Source of the DNA: a virus
DNA: 64,000 nucleotides
Virus record (IMG/VR): IMGVR_UViG_3300018080_000107
Strand: one strand, 5' to 3'
Position 1 is the stretch's first letter, and every line of letters begins with the position of its first letter. Both the position numbers and the translations under genes were made by a program. The notes beneath the pieces were generated by a model, which was not told the origin of the DNA, did not search any database, and was given only the letters and a program-made list of their open reading frames with translations. This document shows positions 30,215 through 59,923 of this stretch, in pieces.

Positions 30215-30652
30215 TTACTTCCCTTCAAATTTAGCCTTAAGTCTCTCGTACTCTTTACGCTCTTTTTCTTCTTTATTTTTCTTACGTCTTGCAGCCGACT
30301 TTTTGGCGCTCAACGATTTTTTTAGACGCTTCTGTACCTCTTCTTGGGTTTCATACCGAGAACCCTCTATATTGATATCGACCTCCTCACAATGACAATC
30401 TATATATGTATGAATGTCCACATAGATATCAAAAAATCCCTTGGCTTCTGCCTCTGCCTTGATATCTTGAAGCATCTTAATAACGTCCTCAATTGGACCT
30501 TCTATGTAAATCTCAGATTTAATTCTTTGACGCCTTAACACCTTCGGCTCATTTGGATCTGGCCTCTTTGTTTTAACTGGTTCCATTTTGCTCATATCTG
30601 GCATTCCATTCAACATTCTTTGTACTGCCGCTAAGTGTCTCTTGTCCTTCAT
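30215..30652 (-). CDS. Hypothetical protein
   Basis: Start trimmed to MKDKR because the longer ORF overlaps tRNA-His. Confidence 0.65.
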   Translation of the reverse strand: MKDKRHLAAVQRMLNGMPDMSKMEPVKTKRPDPNEPKVLRRQRIKSEIYIEGPIEDVIKMLQDIKAEAEAKGFFDIYVDIHTYIDCHCEEVDINIEGSRYETQEEVQKRLKKSLSAKKSAARRKKNKEEKERKEYERLKAKFEGK

Positions 30653-33275: not shown

Positions 33276-33350
33276 TGGTGGACGGAACCCGACTTGCACA
33301 GGTATGACTGGTTCTTCAGACCAGGGCTTTACTTCTTAAGCTATCCGTCC
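33276..33350 (-). tRNA. tRNA-Phe(GAA), T-loop TGCAAGT
   Basis: GGACGGA/TCCGTCC acceptor, CTGGT-CTGAAGA-ACCAG, CCA. Confidence 0.85.
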
Positions 33351-33351
33351 G

Positions 33352-33430
33352 TGGTAGCGGGGGGGAGAGTCGAACTCCCGACTTCCAGCTTATGAGACTG
33401 GCGTGCTAACCACAACTGCACTACCCCGCT
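33352..33430 (-). tRNA. tRNA with CAT anticodon (Met; fMet/Ile2 identity unresolved)
   Basis: AGCGGGG/CCCCGCT acceptor, CCAGT-CTCATAA-GCTGG, CCA. Confidence 0.9.
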
Positions 33431-33866
33431 ATCGATATAAACTAATCCAAACTTCTTTCTCTATGTCCCAAATAAGCCAATCTCGTTTATCAACAAGACG
33501 AGCATAGGACTGTACCTTCTTTTCCTTCGTTCCCTCCCAAAACCAAATAACATCATATGTATAATATCGTCCGACTTCAGGATTCCAAAACCAACTCTTT
33601 TTAGTTGTTTGCCTCATTCGCCGAGGGTTAAGATGCCCACGAAACTTGCCGCCCTTCTTTTCTTTGACGACTTTTTCTTTCCACTGGGTCTTTCTATAAC
33701 TCTTCCAGCTTCTACTTCGTTTACTCCACACATCATCCCATTCTGTTGGGATGTGCCGCCTTTTGCGCCTTGGACGAGGAAAATCATCTTCGTATTGACA
33801 ATCTACATCGTCCGCATGAAACTGAACTAATTCCTGTCGAGTCTTTGGTTTCCGAAAATAACCCAT
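33429..33866 (-). CDS. Hypothetical basic, Trp-rich protein
   Basis: AGGAGG SD; YFRKPKT.QE, IPTEWDD, RSWK..RKTQW. Confidence 0.65.
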   Translation of the reverse strand: MGYFRKPKTRQELVQFHADDVDCQYEDDFPRPRRKRRHIPTEWDDVWSKRSRSWKSYRKTQWKEKVVKEKKGGKFRGHLNPRRMRQTTKKSWFWNPEVGRYYTYDVIWFWEGTKEKKVQSYARLVDKRDWLIWDIEKEVWISLYR

Positions 33867-36481: not shown

Positions 36482-36846
36482 TGGTGGACCTAGAGGGAAT
36501 CGAACCCTCGTCCTGTACAGCTTCTTTAATAGCCTTCTACGTGTGTAGTCCTAATTCTTTTTCTCACTCACCCCATCCGTTCAGGACAAACGCTGTGATG
36601 AGCCAGTCGCAGTAATGTCGATGTGTGCCTCACGACTCTACACACACCCAAGCATTTTCTTTAACTCCGTTTAGCCCGAAATGCCAAAGCTAAAGGAGAC
36701 TGCCGTGCTTATGCGCAGCAGAGTTCGAGTTCTTCAGTTTCTTCAACTGTGTCGGTTAAATTTTAGTTACGGGTTGATAACGCAGCCTCCCGTACTGCGA
36801 CACGCTTACTATTACCTCCACTACCAGTCGATACCGTTGTAGGCCC
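36482..36846 (-). ncRNA. ssrA: tmRNA; tag (A)DTVEETEELELCCA
   Basis: 5' GGGCCTA...TCGAC and 3' GACGAGGGTTCGATTCCCTCTAGGTCCACCA with G3.U70; 365 nt; tag ORF 36709-36753. Confidence 0.92.
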
Positions 36847-42810: not shown

Positions 42811-43236
42811 TTACTTGCGCAAACCCTTTGATGGGTCTATTGAAACAGCATTACTACCGTTGGGCAACTTAGTAACATTGATTCTAATATCCCCGCCTTC
42901 ATTTAGTTCGTCAGAAATATCAATACCCGTGTCCAGCGCCCATTTTCGTGCCTTATGCATAAAGGCGTCATACATTCCCTTAAGCGCCGCATTCTGAGCC
43001 TTAAGATCACAAACTTCTGATTCCAGTAAATCTGCTCGCTCTGTCTGGTCAACAAACTTCTGCTGCCACTCCTGGCATTTGGTACGCAATGCATTCGTTT
43101 CTTTATTTCTATGCCCCAACCTTGTTGTCAATTCTGAAATGCGCATACGTAATTTAAACTTCGTCTGGATAAAAATAATACCAAGTATCGCAATAGTAAT
43201 ACATGAAAAAATACCCACAACTGAAACCGCTGTCAT
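42811..43236 (-). CDS. TM + coiled-coil protein
   Basis: GAGGAG SD before MTAVS. Confidence 0.6.
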   Translation of the reverse strand: MTAVSVVGIFSCITIAILGIIFIQTKFKLRMRISELTTRLGHRNKETNALRTKCQEWQQKFVDQTERADLLESEVCDLKAQNAALKGMYDAFMHKARKWALDTGIDISDELNEGGDIRINVTKLPNGSNAVSIDPSKGLRK

Positions 43237-43341
43237 TTTAACTCCTCTGGGCCGCGCCCTCACTATTATGTATGTAGTTTGACCGAAGGTCTGTCGAGTC
43301 CTTTTTGTTGCGTTGGGGAGGGATACAATTTCACTCCCCTC

Positions 43342-47823: not shown

Positions 47824-47839
47824 TAATAATTTCAAAAAA

Positions 47840-48955
47840 ATACATAAGTCTTTTATTCACCCCCACTTAACAATAGGGAGGGAATTAATATTTCGGTTTA
47901 TTTTATGCCTGGTGGACCCCCCGCCCGTTCATGAAAATCCGTTAATATTTTTCCAAAAACCCTACCGGGGTATCTGTCAAGAAACTTGACACCCCAAAAT
48001 CACCCAGGAAATAATAGGTCGCCCGTTCTTTCCCTGTCTCTATTCTGTACATAGCCCTTACCTTATCTACTATTTGGACAATATCTAAGCAATCGAAAGT
48101 ATATTATTTTTCTTTCATATTCACCCTCATTGGCATGAAAACGCATTAATAATCATAATCATTAACAATCTTTCATAATAGGCTGATGTCAGGATTAAAA
48201 TATATTCATAGCGCCGATTCGCCCAATCATTAAAAATCGTTAATACTTCTCTCCCTGGCATGAAATTGCATTCATACTCTACATATAGCAAATATCTATT
48301 TAATTGACGAAAAAAGGGGATTTTATCTTTTTCTTGATACTTGCCAAATAGGCAATGTGCCCCATTCTTACCTGGCCCACTACCCTATTTCTACCCTATG
48401 CCAAATAGGCAATCGCGGGAAAAGATTAAAAACCTTTCATATCCTGCCATAGTGACATATGCCCTAAACATTAACGCCCATTCATTTTGCGCCATTCTGG
48501 CAGGTAGGTAAAAATGCCCTATAGGAATTTTTTGAGTATGGAAAAATGCCATAGTGTGGCCCACAGTAGAAACCCGGAATTATTAACGTTCCTTAATATT
48601 TCTATACCTTGCTATACTGTATAGGTATATCTTACATGGGGGATTCTTACATATATGGAATAATGGGAAAGGTTTATTCTCTTTTGTCGTAAGGCTTTAC
48701 GACGATATGAGGGATTTTCTATTAGACGCCCTATAAGGCACCATCAACGGCTTTCATGGTCGATATATGCTTAGGTATTCGCCCTATAGTGATTTGCTCT
48801 TGTGTGCTATCTCACGGCTTGCTATTTTGCTTAGTACCGAAAATGTACCATGATTAGACAGTTTTTAGATTCTCCCCGGAAGTAATAAGATGAATACCCT
48901 TTAATGTGATGTCAAGAAAGTAGACAGTTTATATTTATAAAGTATTGCGCCCAAA
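47840..48955. other. 1.1 kb non-coding repeat-rich region (candidate genome terminus/origin)
   Basis: No ORF of 60 aa or more; about 10 motif B copies; C/G tracts; TGCCAAATAGGCAAT twice; TGTCAAGAAA twice. Confidence 0.5.
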
Positions 48956-48958
48956 AGA

Positions 48959-51510: not shown

Positions 51511-51828
51511 TTAGCTTGCAACCTTGCCAATGCTTGCCCTTGCCCTTTTAAGGCTATCCGAAACGGCTTGTTGTGTTGTATTCAAGGCTTCCGCGATAGC
51601 CTTCTGATTCAATCCTTCCCGATAGTACAATTGAACGATGGTTTTTTGCTTTTCGGTAAGGGTATCGGAATAGTCCAGAATGATGGCCGTTTCAATCCTT
51701 CCCGTCATCAATTTCCTGATGTCTTCATCGTCTACCCTTCCCGATTCCATCGACGGGATAAGGCTTTCGACGGCTTCACAAAGGCTTTTGCAATTGTTTC
51801 TCTTTTCGCATGTTTCACAGTTAGTCAT
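51511..51828 (-). CDS. Sigma70 region-4-like HTH protein with Cys-rich N-terminus
   Basis: LTEKQKTIVQLYYREGLNQKAIAEALNTTQQAVS...RA; CETC..C..C. Confidence 0.8.
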   Translation of the reverse strand: MTNCETCEKRNNCKSLCEAVESLIPSMESGRVDDEDIRKLMTGRIETAIILDYSDTLTEKQKTIVQLYYREGLNQKAIAEALNTTQQAVSDSLKRARASIGKVAS

Positions 51829-52452: not shown

Positions 52453-52793
52453 GATTCAACCTTTCGTTATTGTTTTTGTTTCGCCCTTCATAGGTAGCCT
52501 TGAATACAAGGCTATACAGAAAATTAAATCGTTTTAATATTTCTCTCATATCACGCATCTATATATAATAGTATAGGCTTTTCCCCTATGCAAATATCGT
52601 TCCCGACACCATCCGATTGTCCAAATAATAGACAAAAAAACCTGAAATAATAGCTTTCTCTGTGAAGCCTTCTAAGCCGTTTTAACGGCTTTAAGCCTTT
52701 ATATGTATATCTACCCTCATTTGTCGCGCATCGACGTTATCCGTCTAAACCCTTACTATATATAGACTTATGACGACGTATTTTGAAAACCCG

Positions 52794-52809
52794 TGCAAGA
52801 ATCGTGCCA
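52794..52809 (-). promoter_or_regulatory. sigma54 -24/-12 consensus TGGCACG-ATTC-TTGCA
   Basis: Exact GG-N10-GC consensus in non-coding DNA. Confidence 0.45.
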
Positions 52810-52963
52810 GACGCCCTTTTATTAAACCTTTTTAATATTTCAAGCCGATTTATTAAATTGCTTTCATTTTCAATCTATACTATTGCTATAGACTTTTTTA
52901 TTAAATTGCCTTCATAATTGTAGACTTGGATTATTAAGATTCTTTCATAATTCGGACACCATC

Positions 52964-52992
52964 AAAAAAAGCCTACCGAATAGATAGGCTTT
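52964..52992 (-). terminator. Intrinsic terminator
   Basis: AAAGCCTA/TAGGCTTT stem plus T-run. Confidence 0.6.
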
Positions 52993-53083
52993 GTAGTTAA
53001 TTAGTTTTCTACTATTACTGATTTTTAATCATTGCTGGAACGGTTTTTGCTACCCCATAGGCTTTCCCCTTTATGAAAATTGT

Positions 53084-53580: not shown

Positions 53581-53808
53581 TTAATATTTCATGATTCCAG
53601 TAAAAAGCCTTTGTCCAATAAGATGACAATCTTCGGGCAATGGCGTAAACGTCCAATTAGCGCCAGGAAGCCGAAAAGCTTGCCCATCGATGTATGCTGT
53701 ACAATGCTTTGTAGTAAGCTTTATTTGTCCTTCCCTGCCCATTGCGCCATCATTCTTGGCCGTTACTACCCTTCCGATTATCGCATCGATTCTTACGGTT
53801 TTAAGCAT
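53581..53808 (-). CDS. Hypothetical protein
   Basis: Motif A upstream. Confidence 0.6.
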   Translation of the reverse strand: MLKTVRIDAIIGRVVTAKNDGAMGREGQIKLTTKHCTAYIDGQAFRLPGANWTFTPLPEDCHLIGQRLFTGIMKY

Positions 53809-54131
53809 TATTTAGCCTTTCAGTTATCGCCCTTCATTGTAAGCCTTCAATACAAGGCGATACAGATGAAAATGGTTTAATCTTTCTATGTTTTGCCCTT
53901 CTAATATAGATAGTATAGAAGCCTATTCAAATGGTATGCCAGATTTTCAATTATGAAAGAAATTTAATCTGCATAGGCTTTGTTTTCAAGGTTACTGATG
54001 ACGGGAAAAAATAAAGGGTAAAAAAAGGTAGTTTGAAAAAGAAACATGTAAAATTTCCCTATGGGTAAAAAATCCCTATATGGAAAAATAGGTCGGTAAG
54101 AAATACCTGTTTGAAATCCATACATGGGAAA

Positions 54132-54253
54132 ATGAAGATTCTTTAATGATTAAGATTCTTTCATTATGAATAGATTTTAATGTGAAAGGATTTTCATGAA
54201 AAAAAGTTAATGAAGAAATTTTCATGAAAGAAATTTCATGAAGGGATTTTAAT
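54132..54253. repeat. Tandem array of 8 motif B palindromes (ATKAA-N6-TTMAT)
   Basis: Copies at 54132, 54149, 54166, 54182, 54196, 54210, 54224, 54238; last five overlap with a 14-bp period. Confidence 0.9.
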
Positions 54254-54401
54254 CCTTAGAGCAGAAAAAAACCGGCGTCGGAGTCATTTTCCTTAGAGCC
54301 GGTTAATATTGGCGTCGGAGTCATTTTTTGATTCCGGCGTTTTTTTGTTTAGCAAGTAGGGGAACGGCTTTTCAGCCGCCCCCCTCAAACCTGGAGAGTT
54401 T

Positions 54402-54590
54402 TCAAATTTTCACAATATAAAGGTCGTTTCCGTTCTTTTGAATCCTAAAGCCATTCTGGCTTGCGAATGCCCGATGTGCTGGCGACACGTCAAAGAACCT
54501 TGAAAGCTTCTCGAAACGCTTGCTGCCTATCTTGTCCATTGCTTCCGTCAATGCGTCCATTACATTACTCGTCAGTTCTGAAGTCAACAT
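54402..54590 (-). CDS. Hypothetical protein
   Basis: GAAAGG SD; motif A upstream. Confidence 0.6.
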   Translation of the reverse strand: MLTSELTSNVMDALTEAMDKIGSKRFEKLSRFFDVSPAHRAFASQNGFRIQKNGNDLYIVKI

Positions 54591-54679
54591 TGCTTTGCCT
54601 TTCTGTTTTAGGTTTTTACTTTCGTCTCTCATAAGTAGCCTTCTATACAAGGTCTGAATTATTAATCTTCTTTAATCTA

Positions 54680-56137: not shown

Positions 56138-56278
56138 TCTTTCCTCCATTAATATCACCCTCATCAGTAGCCTTTAATACAAGGTCATCTATATGAAAAT
56201 TCTTTAATCTTGGGTCCAAAAAAAAGGCGCACCAACAAGGCACGCCACAAAACGAAAGGTCATAACGATGAATTCTGT

Positions 56279-58691: not shown

Positions 58692-59126
58692 TTAATCTTT
58701 CTTAATTTTGTATATGATGTAAGCGCCCTTCTTTTCCGCCACAACCTCAAAAGGCAGTACACGATTTACTTGATAAGTTCCGGTTTTCGTCCATCCTTCT
58801 TTCTTGATGTCTCGCCTAACTGTAATGTATGCAGTTCCACCAACAACAAGGTAATCATGAATGCCCTTTAATACACCGTGAACCTCATCGTCAGTTATGA
58901 CATTCAATACATAATTACAAACAACTGTATCAAATTGCCCTTCCGGCTTCTCAGGACGATGGAACGGGTCAAAGCCTGCAATACCAAGCTCATCGGCGTC
59001 AAAGCCTTTCCCACAACCATAGTCCAATACACGCCCCGTCAGAAGTCCTCTATCCCTTAGAAGTCGCATAGGGACACTAAGGGTTTTTCTCGTGATTGCT
59101 GTTTTGTGTGCTTTGTCATTCTTCAT
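58692..59126 (-). CDS. Class I SAM-dependent methyltransferase
   Basis: VLDYGCGKG.D, FDP, CNYVLNVI. Confidence 0.85.
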   Translation of the reverse strand: MKNDKAHKTAITRKTLSVPMRLLRDRGLLTGRVLDYGCGKGFDADELGIAGFDPFHRPEKPEGQFDTVVCNYVLNVITDDEVHGVLKGIHDYLVVGGTAYITVRRDIKKEGWTKTGTYQVNRVLPFEVVAEKKGAYIIYKIKKD

Positions 59127-59297
59127 TAGTTTGCCTTTCATTTGTTTTCCGCCCTCATTGGTAGCCTGAAATACAAGGTATTGTGAAAAAAGATTAACTG
59201 TATATCCTAAGTCTTGTATTTGAGGCTACTTATGAACGGGGAGTTATCCCCACCTATTCTATCTTATATAACAAGCGAAAATAGGAGGATTTGCCAG

Positions 59298-59409
59298 ACG
59301 AAAATGAGTTAATGATTACGAAAGTTTAATGATTAATGTTTTTTAATGAATGAATTTTAATGAAGATTCTTTAATGTGAAAATCGCTTAATGTATGATGT
59401 GATTTTCAT
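59298..59409. repeat. Tandem array of about 7 motif B palindromes
   Basis: Copies at 59298, 59315, 59332, 59346, 59360, 59376, 59394; outer copies have one mismatch. Confidence 0.85.
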
Positions 59410-59512
59410 AGAGCCAGAAGGTTTCGGCGTCGAAGGCTAAGAGCGGCCAATATCCGGCGTCGAAGCCTTTTTTTGTTGACCCGACATTAAGAAATTTTAA
59501 TCTAATGTGCAT

Positions 59513-59542
59513 AAAAAAACCCACCGCAACAAGCGATGGGTT
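59513..59542 (-). terminator. Intrinsic terminator after the MazG-like gene
   Basis: AACCCA-CGC..GCG-TGGGTT hairpin plus T-run. Confidence 0.6.
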
Positions 59543-59593: not shown

Positions 59594-59923
59594 TTACCTA
59601 TCATCCCCACTTCCATGAAGCTTCCCCCTGCGCTTCCTATCATAAAGCTTATCAATATTTGTTTGTGCAATATCGGCAAGGTCAAGATTAAGTTCTTCCG
59701 CCAAAGCTGCGAGATACCATAGCACGTCTCCCAGTTCCTTCTTTAGCGCCCGTCTAAGCTCGTCTGACAGCACTCCACCACTGTCGCGTATCATCTTCTT
59801 AATCTTCTCTGCTATCTCTCCAGCCTCGCCACAAAGCCCCAGTGTTGGATAAATAATATTGTTTCCCTTATTCGGATAAACAGCAGTCTCCATCGCCCTT
59901 TGCTGATACATATTAAAGTCCAT
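59594..59923 (-). CDS. MazG-like nucleotide pyrophosphohydrolase
   Basis: GLCGEAGE..EK.KK, ELGDVLWY, N..KL..R...G.GD.R. Confidence 0.9.
   Translation of the reverse strand: MDFNMYQQRAMETAVYPNKGNNIIYPTLGLCGEAGEIAEKIKKMIRDSGGVLSDELRRALKKELGDVLWYLAALAEELNLDLADIAQTNIDKLYDRKRRGKLHGSGDDR

Follow-up and report, generated by a model that had tools for sequence, protein, structure and literature searches.

Tandem copies of the operator of a target promoter, with no regulated gene behind them, have been described in both synthetic and natural systems (PMC3322331, PMC8599769, PMC11549397). Decoy sites repeated in this way bind up a transcription factor, so that a graded response becomes one with a threshold (PMC3322331), and they also sharpen the timing of intracellular events (PMC11549397). 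Here we analyze two non-coding modules of a phage that contain tandem copies of a palindrome, motif B, which also occurs at the predicted early promoters of the same phage. The modules, at 53953-54346 (module 1) and 59184-59477 (module 2), lie in a stretch of 64,000 nucleotides (hereafter, the window) from IMG/VR record IMGVR_UViG_3300018080_000107, part of an uncultured phage of ~166 kb. Sequestration, with a threshold or timing response, is the expected effect of such tandem operator copies. The modules differ from the described decoys in lying inside a promoter-terminator unit of their own, which decoys do not need, in their phage context, and in that the binding protein is known only as a candidate.

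Centromere and operator arrays of small dimeric repressors, such as omega of pSM19035 and ParR at parC of R1, are similar in form. They consist of seven to ten short sites, head-to-tail or inverted, with a period of 7-20 bp, and the protein also regulates several promoters. In the window, we found neither a gene for a partition ATPase nor one resembling ParR or omega. Another similarity is to the promoter-early stem-loop (PeSL) cassettes, which comprise a sigma70-like promoter and a terminator stem-loop and drive modular shuffling in T4-type phages (PMC2839356, PMC4122927). In both cases, short and highly similar composite cassettes lie between small orphan early genes and provide a promoter per gene. 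However, the predicted early promoter of the present phage, motif A, cannot be fitted to the sigma70 spacing (TTGACA-N17-TATAAT), and motif B is not a stem-loop, as its arms do not covary, nor did counts of its flanks find a U-run after it. A third comparison is provided by the replication origins of T4, where an early promoter and clustered 12-nt repeats occur together at oriE, and oriF and oriG are R-loop origins (PMC3016281). Like these, the modules have a predicted early promoter that reads into evenly spaced repeats or an easily melted stretch, and more than one copy is present in the genome.

We propose that each module is an early transcription unit free of open reading frames (ORFs), the body of which would serve as a dense landing pad, or sink, for a regulator that binds motif B. 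We put the probability of this explanation at about 0.4. Judging from the sequence, the modules probably help control early transcription.

Layout of the two modules

The block of small, mostly orphan early-type genes extends from ~48 kb to the end of the window. These genes are separated by near-identical cassettes of ~75 nt, each composed of motif B, a spacer, motif A, a leader and a Shine-Dalgarno (SD) sequence. In the usual order, a 16-bp motif B is followed by a spacer of 9-12 nt, mostly CTGTAT, then by motif A and by a leader that is often CGATAACTGAAAGG. The 27-nt consensus of motif A, CTTGTATTNNAGGCTACNNATGANGGG, has 11 copies at three or fewer mismatches, compared with 0.00 in shuffled sequences, and 13 copies at five or fewer. 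Eleven of these 13 copies are on the minus strand, which carries every convincing gene in the window, and ten of the 11 have an SD sequence and a start codon 7-34 nt downstream. Position and orientation thus point to motif A as a phage-specific promoter. A scan for sigma70-like sites revealed no excess in the early block (50 versus 46 in shuffled sequences). We rejected the reading of motif A as an RNA hairpin, the dyad CCTTG-N4-CAAGG being present in just three copies.

The only two plus-strand copies of motif A are those of the modules, at 53979-54005 and 59213-59239. Each is divergent from an ordinary minus-strand copy, at a distance of 122 bp in module 1 and 35 bp in module 2, and neither is followed by an SD sequence or an ORF. 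Upstream, both have a motif B and a spacer, as do the cassettes of the 11 gene-proximal copies. In module 1, the predicted plus-strand early promoter matches 24 of the 27 consensus positions and is preceded, 10 nt upstream, by an exact motif B (53953-53968) with a CTGCAT/CTGTAT spacer. Its leader (54006-54131; 126 nt) is A-rich, with 29% GC, and contains three repeats of the CCMTAYRKGG type (54048-54064, 54065-54089 and 54114-54133); enrichment of CCCTAT ("motif C") is only mild. The leader is followed by an array of eight motif B units (54132-54253), seven of them exact and one with a single mismatch. The array has 21% GC and a GC skew of +0.54; its units start at 54132, 54149, 54166, 54182, 54196, 54210, 54224 and 54238, that is, with a spacing of 17, 17, 16, 14, 14, 14 and 14.

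The 3' part of module 1 is a direct repeat with a period of 37 nt and 2.0 copies (54253-54326, plus strand), each copy having the form TCCTTAGAGC...GGCGTCGGAGTCATTT and the word GGCGTCGGAG occurring within it at 54274 and 54311. Folding reveals two hairpins on the plus strand. The first, CCGGC...GCCGG, spans 54270-54304. The second, at 54311-54346, is a predicted intrinsic terminator with a 13-pair stem that includes four G·U pairs; here the second GGCGUCGGAGUCA pairs with UGAUUCCGGCGUU, and the structure ends in CCGGCG and T7 at 54334-54346. Its z-score is -5.8 on the plus strand and -2.6 on the minus strand, and in a terminator scan the segment 54311-54341 with its T-run was among the strongest plus-strand sites.

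Module 2 repeats this order. A degenerate motif B, GTGAA-N6-TTAAC, can be read from the sequence at 59184-59199, between its two divergent promoters, and the predicted plus-strand early promoter (59213-59239) has 26 of 27 consensus positions, with one mismatch. A leader of 58 nt with two short hairpins (59240-59297) leads into an array of seven motif B units (59298-59409), three exact and four with one mismatch, spaced by 17, 17, 14, 14, 16 and 18 nt, with 22% GC and a GC skew of +0.57. The word GGCGTCGAAG follows at 59426 and 59456, and then T7. The predicted terminator (59416-59475, plus strand) is formed by two copies of CGGCGUCG that pair with each other via G·U in a 17-pair stem ending in T7, with a z-score of -3.1 on the plus strand and -1.1 on the minus strand. 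All elements listed for the two modules in the earlier note are thus present, with coordinates that agree within 1-2 nt, and the counts of motifs A and B in shuffled sequences exclude chance; the second copy of the layout, given there as 59184-59480, recurs at 59184-59477. The GGCGTCG repeats, which had been set apart as a class of their own, proved to be arms of the plus-strand terminator hairpins. The exact word GGCGTCGRAG occurs five times in 64 kb, and four of these occurrences are within the two modules.

Several signals are specific to the plus strand. The terminators are strand-specific, because the G·U pairs of their stems become C·A mismatches on the opposite strand. The fold energy of the arrays is -33.0 kcal/mol on the plus strand versus -20.9 on the minus strand in module 1, and -22.5 versus -6.5 in module 2. 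In the leaders, the plus-strand fold has no such advantage. For whole units, the z-scores of folding are -5.3 (module 1) and -3.5 (module 2). The GC skew of the modules is +0.30 and +0.21, compared with -0.14 to -0.31 in the flanking genes and -0.13 and -0.21 in two other non-coding stretches, and this flip is confined to the units of 240-340 nt. Hence, the plus strand of the modules resembles in base composition the sense strand elsewhere in the phage. Neither module contains a plus-strand ORF of at least 40 codons, and the minus-strand ORFs that overlap them (49-65 codons) have neither an SD sequence nor a match in PHROG.

Taken together, the strand-specific terminators, the folding of the arrays and the inverted skew are best read as a discrete plus-strand transcription unit in each module, with predicted RNAs of ~340 and ~240 nt. 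Each unit has three features expected of a gene for a small or non-coding RNA, namely its own promoter-like motif A, an intrinsic terminator on the same strand and no ORF.

The neighbors of the modules are ordinary elements of the early block. The divergent partner of module 1 is a minus-strand motif A at 53830-53856 with two mismatches, the predicted early promoter of the gene at 53581-53808; an SD sequence and ATG lie 21 nt downstream, and an exact motif B (53866-53881) lies 9 nt upstream. On the other side, a GC-rich minus-strand hairpin without a U-tract (54359-54384), convergent with module 1, marks the end of the gene at 54402-54650; it was read by eye and is absent from the terminator scan. 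The divergent partner of module 2 is the minus-strand motif A at 59151-59177, the predicted promoter of a methyltransferase-like gene (58692-59141). A minus-strand intrinsic terminator of the MazG-like gene at 59594-59923, also read from the sequence, is convergent with module 2 (59510-59537).

Motif B, divergence of the modules and relatives

Motif B, ATKAA-N6-TTMAT, has 57 exact copies in the window versus 1.08 expected in shuffled sequences, and 55 of them lie within 47.9-62.2 kb. About 40 are single putative operators dispersed through the early block, at gene junctions and promoters. The variable third arm bases form the pairs TA, GA, TC and GC in 19, 19, 14 and 5 copies, respectively, so that Watson-Crick combinations (24) do not exceed the 30 expected under independence. 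Because the arms do not covary, motif B is better explained as a protein site in duplex DNA than as a hairpin. We predict that it is bound by a dimeric protein whose half-sites are separated by one helical turn; the boxes of CRP and ArgR, which are bound by helix-turn-helix or winged-helix dimers, have the same 5-N6-5 geometry. In sequence, motif B corresponds to no host-regulator site that we could name. Many copies between 47931 and 59927 coincide with a gene end: positions 3-5 of their first arm form the TAA stop of the preceding gene, always in the same register. Thus, gene ends and operators are fused at these sites. Where a terminator is present (56226-56246), one motif B precedes it and another follows it, adjoining the promoter, which also points to a role at the DNA level.

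The only recognizable DNA-binding protein among the early proteins of the window is a 105-aa protein encoded at 51511-51828 (minus strand), with a helix-turn-helix domain of the sigma-70 region 4 / YlxM type (Pfam E-value 8e-10). It is a candidate for the protein that binds motif B or for a partner of motif A.

The two modules align colinearly with 71% column identity and have in common an identical 17-mer, ATGAAGATTCTTTAATG, as well as units of the form TAGAGC...CGGCGTCGRAG, whereas the leaders cannot be aligned. On this alignment we regard the modules as diverged paralogs. The earlier note had described their primary sequences as different and only the architecture as conserved, a view that does not hold. 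The ten fixed arm positions are intact in seven of the eight units of module 1 and in three of the seven units of module 2, the remaining units having one mismatch each, and the cores vary. Conservation of the arms, despite variable cores and unalignable leaders, indicates that the arms are under selection. The informative point is the survival of the promoter, the operator arms and the terminator through this divergence.

Searches for similar modules elsewhere were negative. No match was found with blastn in distant mode of a module against 50,697 phage records, and IMG/VR, scanned with exact patterns of the 3' element and of motif A, yielded nothing. A scan of JGI metagenome contigs for motif A yielded five single matches without any motif B, which we read as chance. 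Nor did we find relatives encoding the SprT-like early protein. Homologs of the MazG-like protein are too widespread to mark relatives, and a second contig encodes an identical MazG. A three-unit pattern with a 14-nt period, scanned in IMG/VR and GTDB, detected unrelated perfect microsatellites in giant-virus contigs and scattered matches, which were discarded. The same was true for an actinomycete site with three copies of TTCATGAAC, where the neighboring genes were inconsistent. Three TTCATGAAC palindromes with a 14-bp period are found in a Streptosporangiaceae genome (L043 3663-3700), where an ABC-transporter fragment lies downstream and a TetR gene nearby; this site is an unrelated example of the geometry of motif B sites.

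Relatives were found by alignment of TerL, which identified four (G001-G004), and motif B is not enriched in any of them. Alignment of the one shared early protein retrieved only G001 again. G001 is an IMG/VR contig with a TerL identity of 53% and structural genes syntenic with those of the window. It has a class of promoters related to motif A, TTTTCAATCC-N3-GTGCAGTAGATGTGAGGG, ahead of small genes, which supports the existence of a lineage-wide promoter type. No homolog of the 105-aa helix-turn-helix protein is present in the G001 fragment.

A proposed operator sink and alternative explanations

How such a unit could act is suggested by the order of its elements. On the strand opposite to all genes, the unit would start at a complete standard early-promoter cassette (motif B, a CTGTAT-type spacer and motif A). 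Transcription would then cross the short leader and a head-to-tail array of seven or eight more motif B operators, and would halt at a strong Rho-independent terminator made of the GGCGTCG-containing repeats. A dimeric protein is predicted to bind the half-sites ATKAA and TTMAT, and the array would recruit the same protein at high density. In this way, the arrays could buffer the free concentration of the regulator and so sharpen or time its action at motif A promoters. The promoter and terminator of the unit would confine plus-strand transcription to the array, and this transcription could report or reset its occupancy.

That the arrays recruit the same protein is the most economical assumption, because the body of each unit consists of the operator of the early promoters, with conserved arms and free cores. 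A high-density sink or landing pad is suggested by the presence of 15 operators in about 230 bp of the two arrays, compared with roughly 40 single operators over the whole early block. The layout expected of a decoy array is observed here: the site is the same as at the early promoters, it is densely repeated in tandem, and no gene of its own is attached. We regard a more specific scenario as doubtful. In this scenario, the arrays are transcription-coupled sinks that soak up a master regulator of ~40 early promoters, and their occupancy is read out or cleared by the early promoter on the opposite strand; in a variant, the RNA copy of the array would, as a duplex, mimic the operator.

Several points weigh against an operator sink or landing pad. 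A promoter and a terminator would be superfluous in a sink made of DNA alone. For a protein filament that forms cooperatively, a unit spacing of 14-18 bp is irregular, and just 15 motif B sites, about one in four, belong to the arrays. The binding protein is represented by a single candidate, the 105-aa protein with sigma-region-4 similarity. Because the modules are paralogs, recurrence of the layout is not independent evidence. Finally, the same layout, which the earlier note had proposed to seek in related phages, was found in none of them: no relative has an array, and G001, the only relative fragment that holds the early region, has just the half-site TTTTMAT.

If the modules are transcription-coupled operator sinks, they would constitute a built-in timer for the switch from early to middle expression. 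Nearly all predicted early promoters are linked to the same 16-bp putative operator, and two gene-free arrays of this operator lie in the same block. To our knowledge, the timing of shut-off of dozens of individually promoted early genes in large virulent phages is poorly understood outside T4, T7 and SPO1. Titration or loading of a regulator by these arrays would be a natural case of decoy-site timing, so far demonstrated mainly in synthetic systems. The phage offers a simple, testable handle in the form of one palindrome and a small set of early proteins.

The earlier note had named three options for the modules: a replication origin, a titration or loading array, and a non-coding RNA. The ORF-free plus-strand unit, the strand-specific terminator, the flipped skew and the absence of covariation in motif B favor the second and third of these. 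An explanation in which the functional product is RNA is nonetheless one that we hold with considerable doubt. It assumes non-coding RNAs of ~340 and ~240 nt whose AUKAA...UUMAU hairpins act as a sponge for an RNA-binding protein, mimic the operator as duplex RNA, or pair with minus-strand read-through transcripts. Such RNAs are consistent with a unit that is bounded by a promoter and a terminator and free of ORFs, with the z-scores of whole-unit folding and with the sense-like skew of the plus strand. They are also consistent with the better fold of the arrays on this strand, which is due to G·U pairs and includes core-to-core pairing of units 1-2 with units 3-4. However, a positive skew alone yields more G·U pairs on the plus strand, and hairpins between neighboring units arise automatically from tandem palindromes. 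The lack of covariation between motif B arms and the failure of the leaders to fold better on the plus strand also argue against RNA as the product. In Rfam, nothing reached the gathering score, and the E-value mode gave just sub-threshold, terminator-driven hits (Spot 42 and EF3314). A search for RNA-RNA duplexes between the module RNAs and 36 early start regions revealed no consistent target, module 2 performing no better than shuffled sequences.

Another scenario, which we consider unlikely, is that the modules are transcription-activated replication origins, possibly forming a pair. Here the motif B protein would double as an initiator and the very AT-rich array would be the melting region, with the plus-strand transcript either opening the duplex or priming replication via an R-loop. 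Paired origins are exemplified by ori/crr of P4 and oriL/oriR of SPP1. The predicted promoter of each module reads into the array, a tandem array of dyads lies beside an A-rich leader (21-29% GC), and the two modules are 5.2 kb apart. In T4, oriE likewise has an early-mode promoter and evenly spaced repeats, and oriF and oriG use R-loops (PMC3016281). Moreover, the lineage does carry iteron-like arrays, as G001 has one of 7.6 copies with a 21-nt period beside an AT-rich stretch. On the other hand, the repeats of oriE are direct and local, and their role is unproven, whereas those of the modules are dyads shared with ~40 promoter-proximal sites. A site that occurs in 57 copies, some 40 of them at gene junctions and promoters, would be unusual for an iteron and is not origin-specific. 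The modules also have no strand switch, skew turn or adjoining replication genes. No gene for a replication initiator, helicase loader or primase is adjacent, the neighbors being small orphan genes, the methyltransferase-like gene and MazG; cumulative GC skew is monotonic and the genes are on one strand throughout the window, while T4 origins tend to coincide with strand switches, of which this genome has one ~12 kb past the end of the window; and DnaA boxes occur at chance level (22 versus 22.2). Priming, in addition, does not need a strong terminator right after the array. Of the three options, the origin is thus the one that the data disfavor. If the modules were origins after all, a global early regulator would be tied to the start of replication. 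In animal viruses, EBNA1 and E2 provide such a link.

It is improbable that the modules are mere by-products of cassette recombination and slippage. According to this explanation, an inverted promoter cassette with slipped motif B units was later duplicated and was kept since the terminator makes it harmless, serving at most for convergent-transcription insulation of the neighboring early genes. The background of ~75-nt cassettes does resemble the shuffling PeSL cassettes of T4-type phages (PMC2839356, PMC4122927), the 14- and 28-nt periodicity fits slippage, the modules are paralogs, and looser clusters of motif B without a reversed promoter are present at 48135-48275 and 52821-52948. Nevertheless, despite their unalignable leaders, the predicted promoter of both modules is still close to consensus, the operators are arm-perfect and the body is free of ORFs, and both retain a terminator, with a different topology in each; neutral decay would erase the arms. 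Base composition adapted to the plus strand is a further argument against this origin of the modules.

Least credible is a chain of mini-ORFs in which ribosomes terminate and reinitiate repeatedly, leading to ribosome trapping or release of peptidyl-tRNA, for which the lambda bar minigenes are a precedent. Almost every plus-strand unit (54132-54253 and 59304-59409) reads as AUG, 3-5 codons and UAA or UGA, with UAAUG or AUGA overlaps, and in module 2 AGGAGG precedes the first AUG by 15 nt. In the forward cluster 52821-52948, the gene strand has ATG...TAATAA in three of the four units and an initial ATT in the fourth, and the phage carries its own transfer-messenger RNA (tmRNA). However, module 1 has no SD sequence, and in module 2 the spacing of the SD sequence is poor. 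The in-frame ATG and TAA result directly from the palindrome arms and the N6 spacer, and most of the 57 copies of motif B are sited where such translation is impossible. The mini-ORFs are probably a by-product of the palindrome.

Four other candidates were rejected. A type III toxin-antitoxin or phage pseudo-ToxI repeat RNA would have tandem repeats of ~34-45 nt enclosed by a promoter and a terminator, and a toxin endoribonuclease encoded next to it or by the host, whereas the period of the arrays is 14-18 nt and the 37- and 30-nt repeats are terminator arms; no plus-strand gene follows and Rfam gave no match. A CRISPR-like array is contradicted by the absence of spacers. Integron attC sites do not fit, as motif B is not a hairpin and the window encodes no integrase. 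For restriction-site decoys there was no evidence, and phages normally avoid such sites.

Other regions of the window and of the related contig

Two further non-coding regions of the window contain clusters of motif B. The first is an ORF-poor stretch of 1.1 kb (47836-48958) at the edge of the early block, with 37% GC compared with 35% for the 48-50 kb segment. It contains ten copies of motif B, five of which are spaced by 26-35 bp (48135-48275), several CCCTAT-type repeats, and good sigma70-like sites at 47986 and 48130. This stretch may be a control region or a further candidate origin. The second region is intergenic (52559-53083) and oriented along the gene strand. There, a terminator (52968-52992) is followed by four copies of motif B spaced by 31-48 bp. 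All four are followed by AA; three have the form ATGAA-N6-TTAAT, and the fourth starts with ATTAA. After the cluster come CGTC-containing words, a hairpin and a T-run. The region resembles a looser version of the modules in forward orientation, lacking a motif A of its own.

Apart from the early block, the window encodes a terminase, portal and tail proteins, a class II ribonucleotide reductase and RNA ligases, together with 12 tRNA genes and the tmRNA. TerL of the phage has just 26% identity to those of cultured Bacillus phages. The tmRNA (36482-36846, minus strand) scores 133 bits in Rfam; the tag peptide predicted by ARAGORN is unusual and its end is not the usual ALAA.

Repeats of other kinds were observed in G001. 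An array of 7.6 copies with a 21-nt period, whose units contain GTCATATGAC, lies at 33306-33468 (L004 13306-13468) beside a very AT-rich stretch; it is a classical candidate origin, and its sequence is unrelated to motif B. Another repeat, at 30270-30592 (L004 10270-10592), is GC-rich, with 21.5 copies of 15 nt in a phage of 34% GC, and reads on the opposite strand as a coding region for pentapeptide repeats of the A-D-L-x-x type. Finally, at 43110-43272 (minus strand, within L005), a motif A-like promoter is followed by a short ORF-free segment that contains three ACCTATGTAA-type repeats with a 15-nt period; these recall the CCCTATGG repeats of the module 1 leader.

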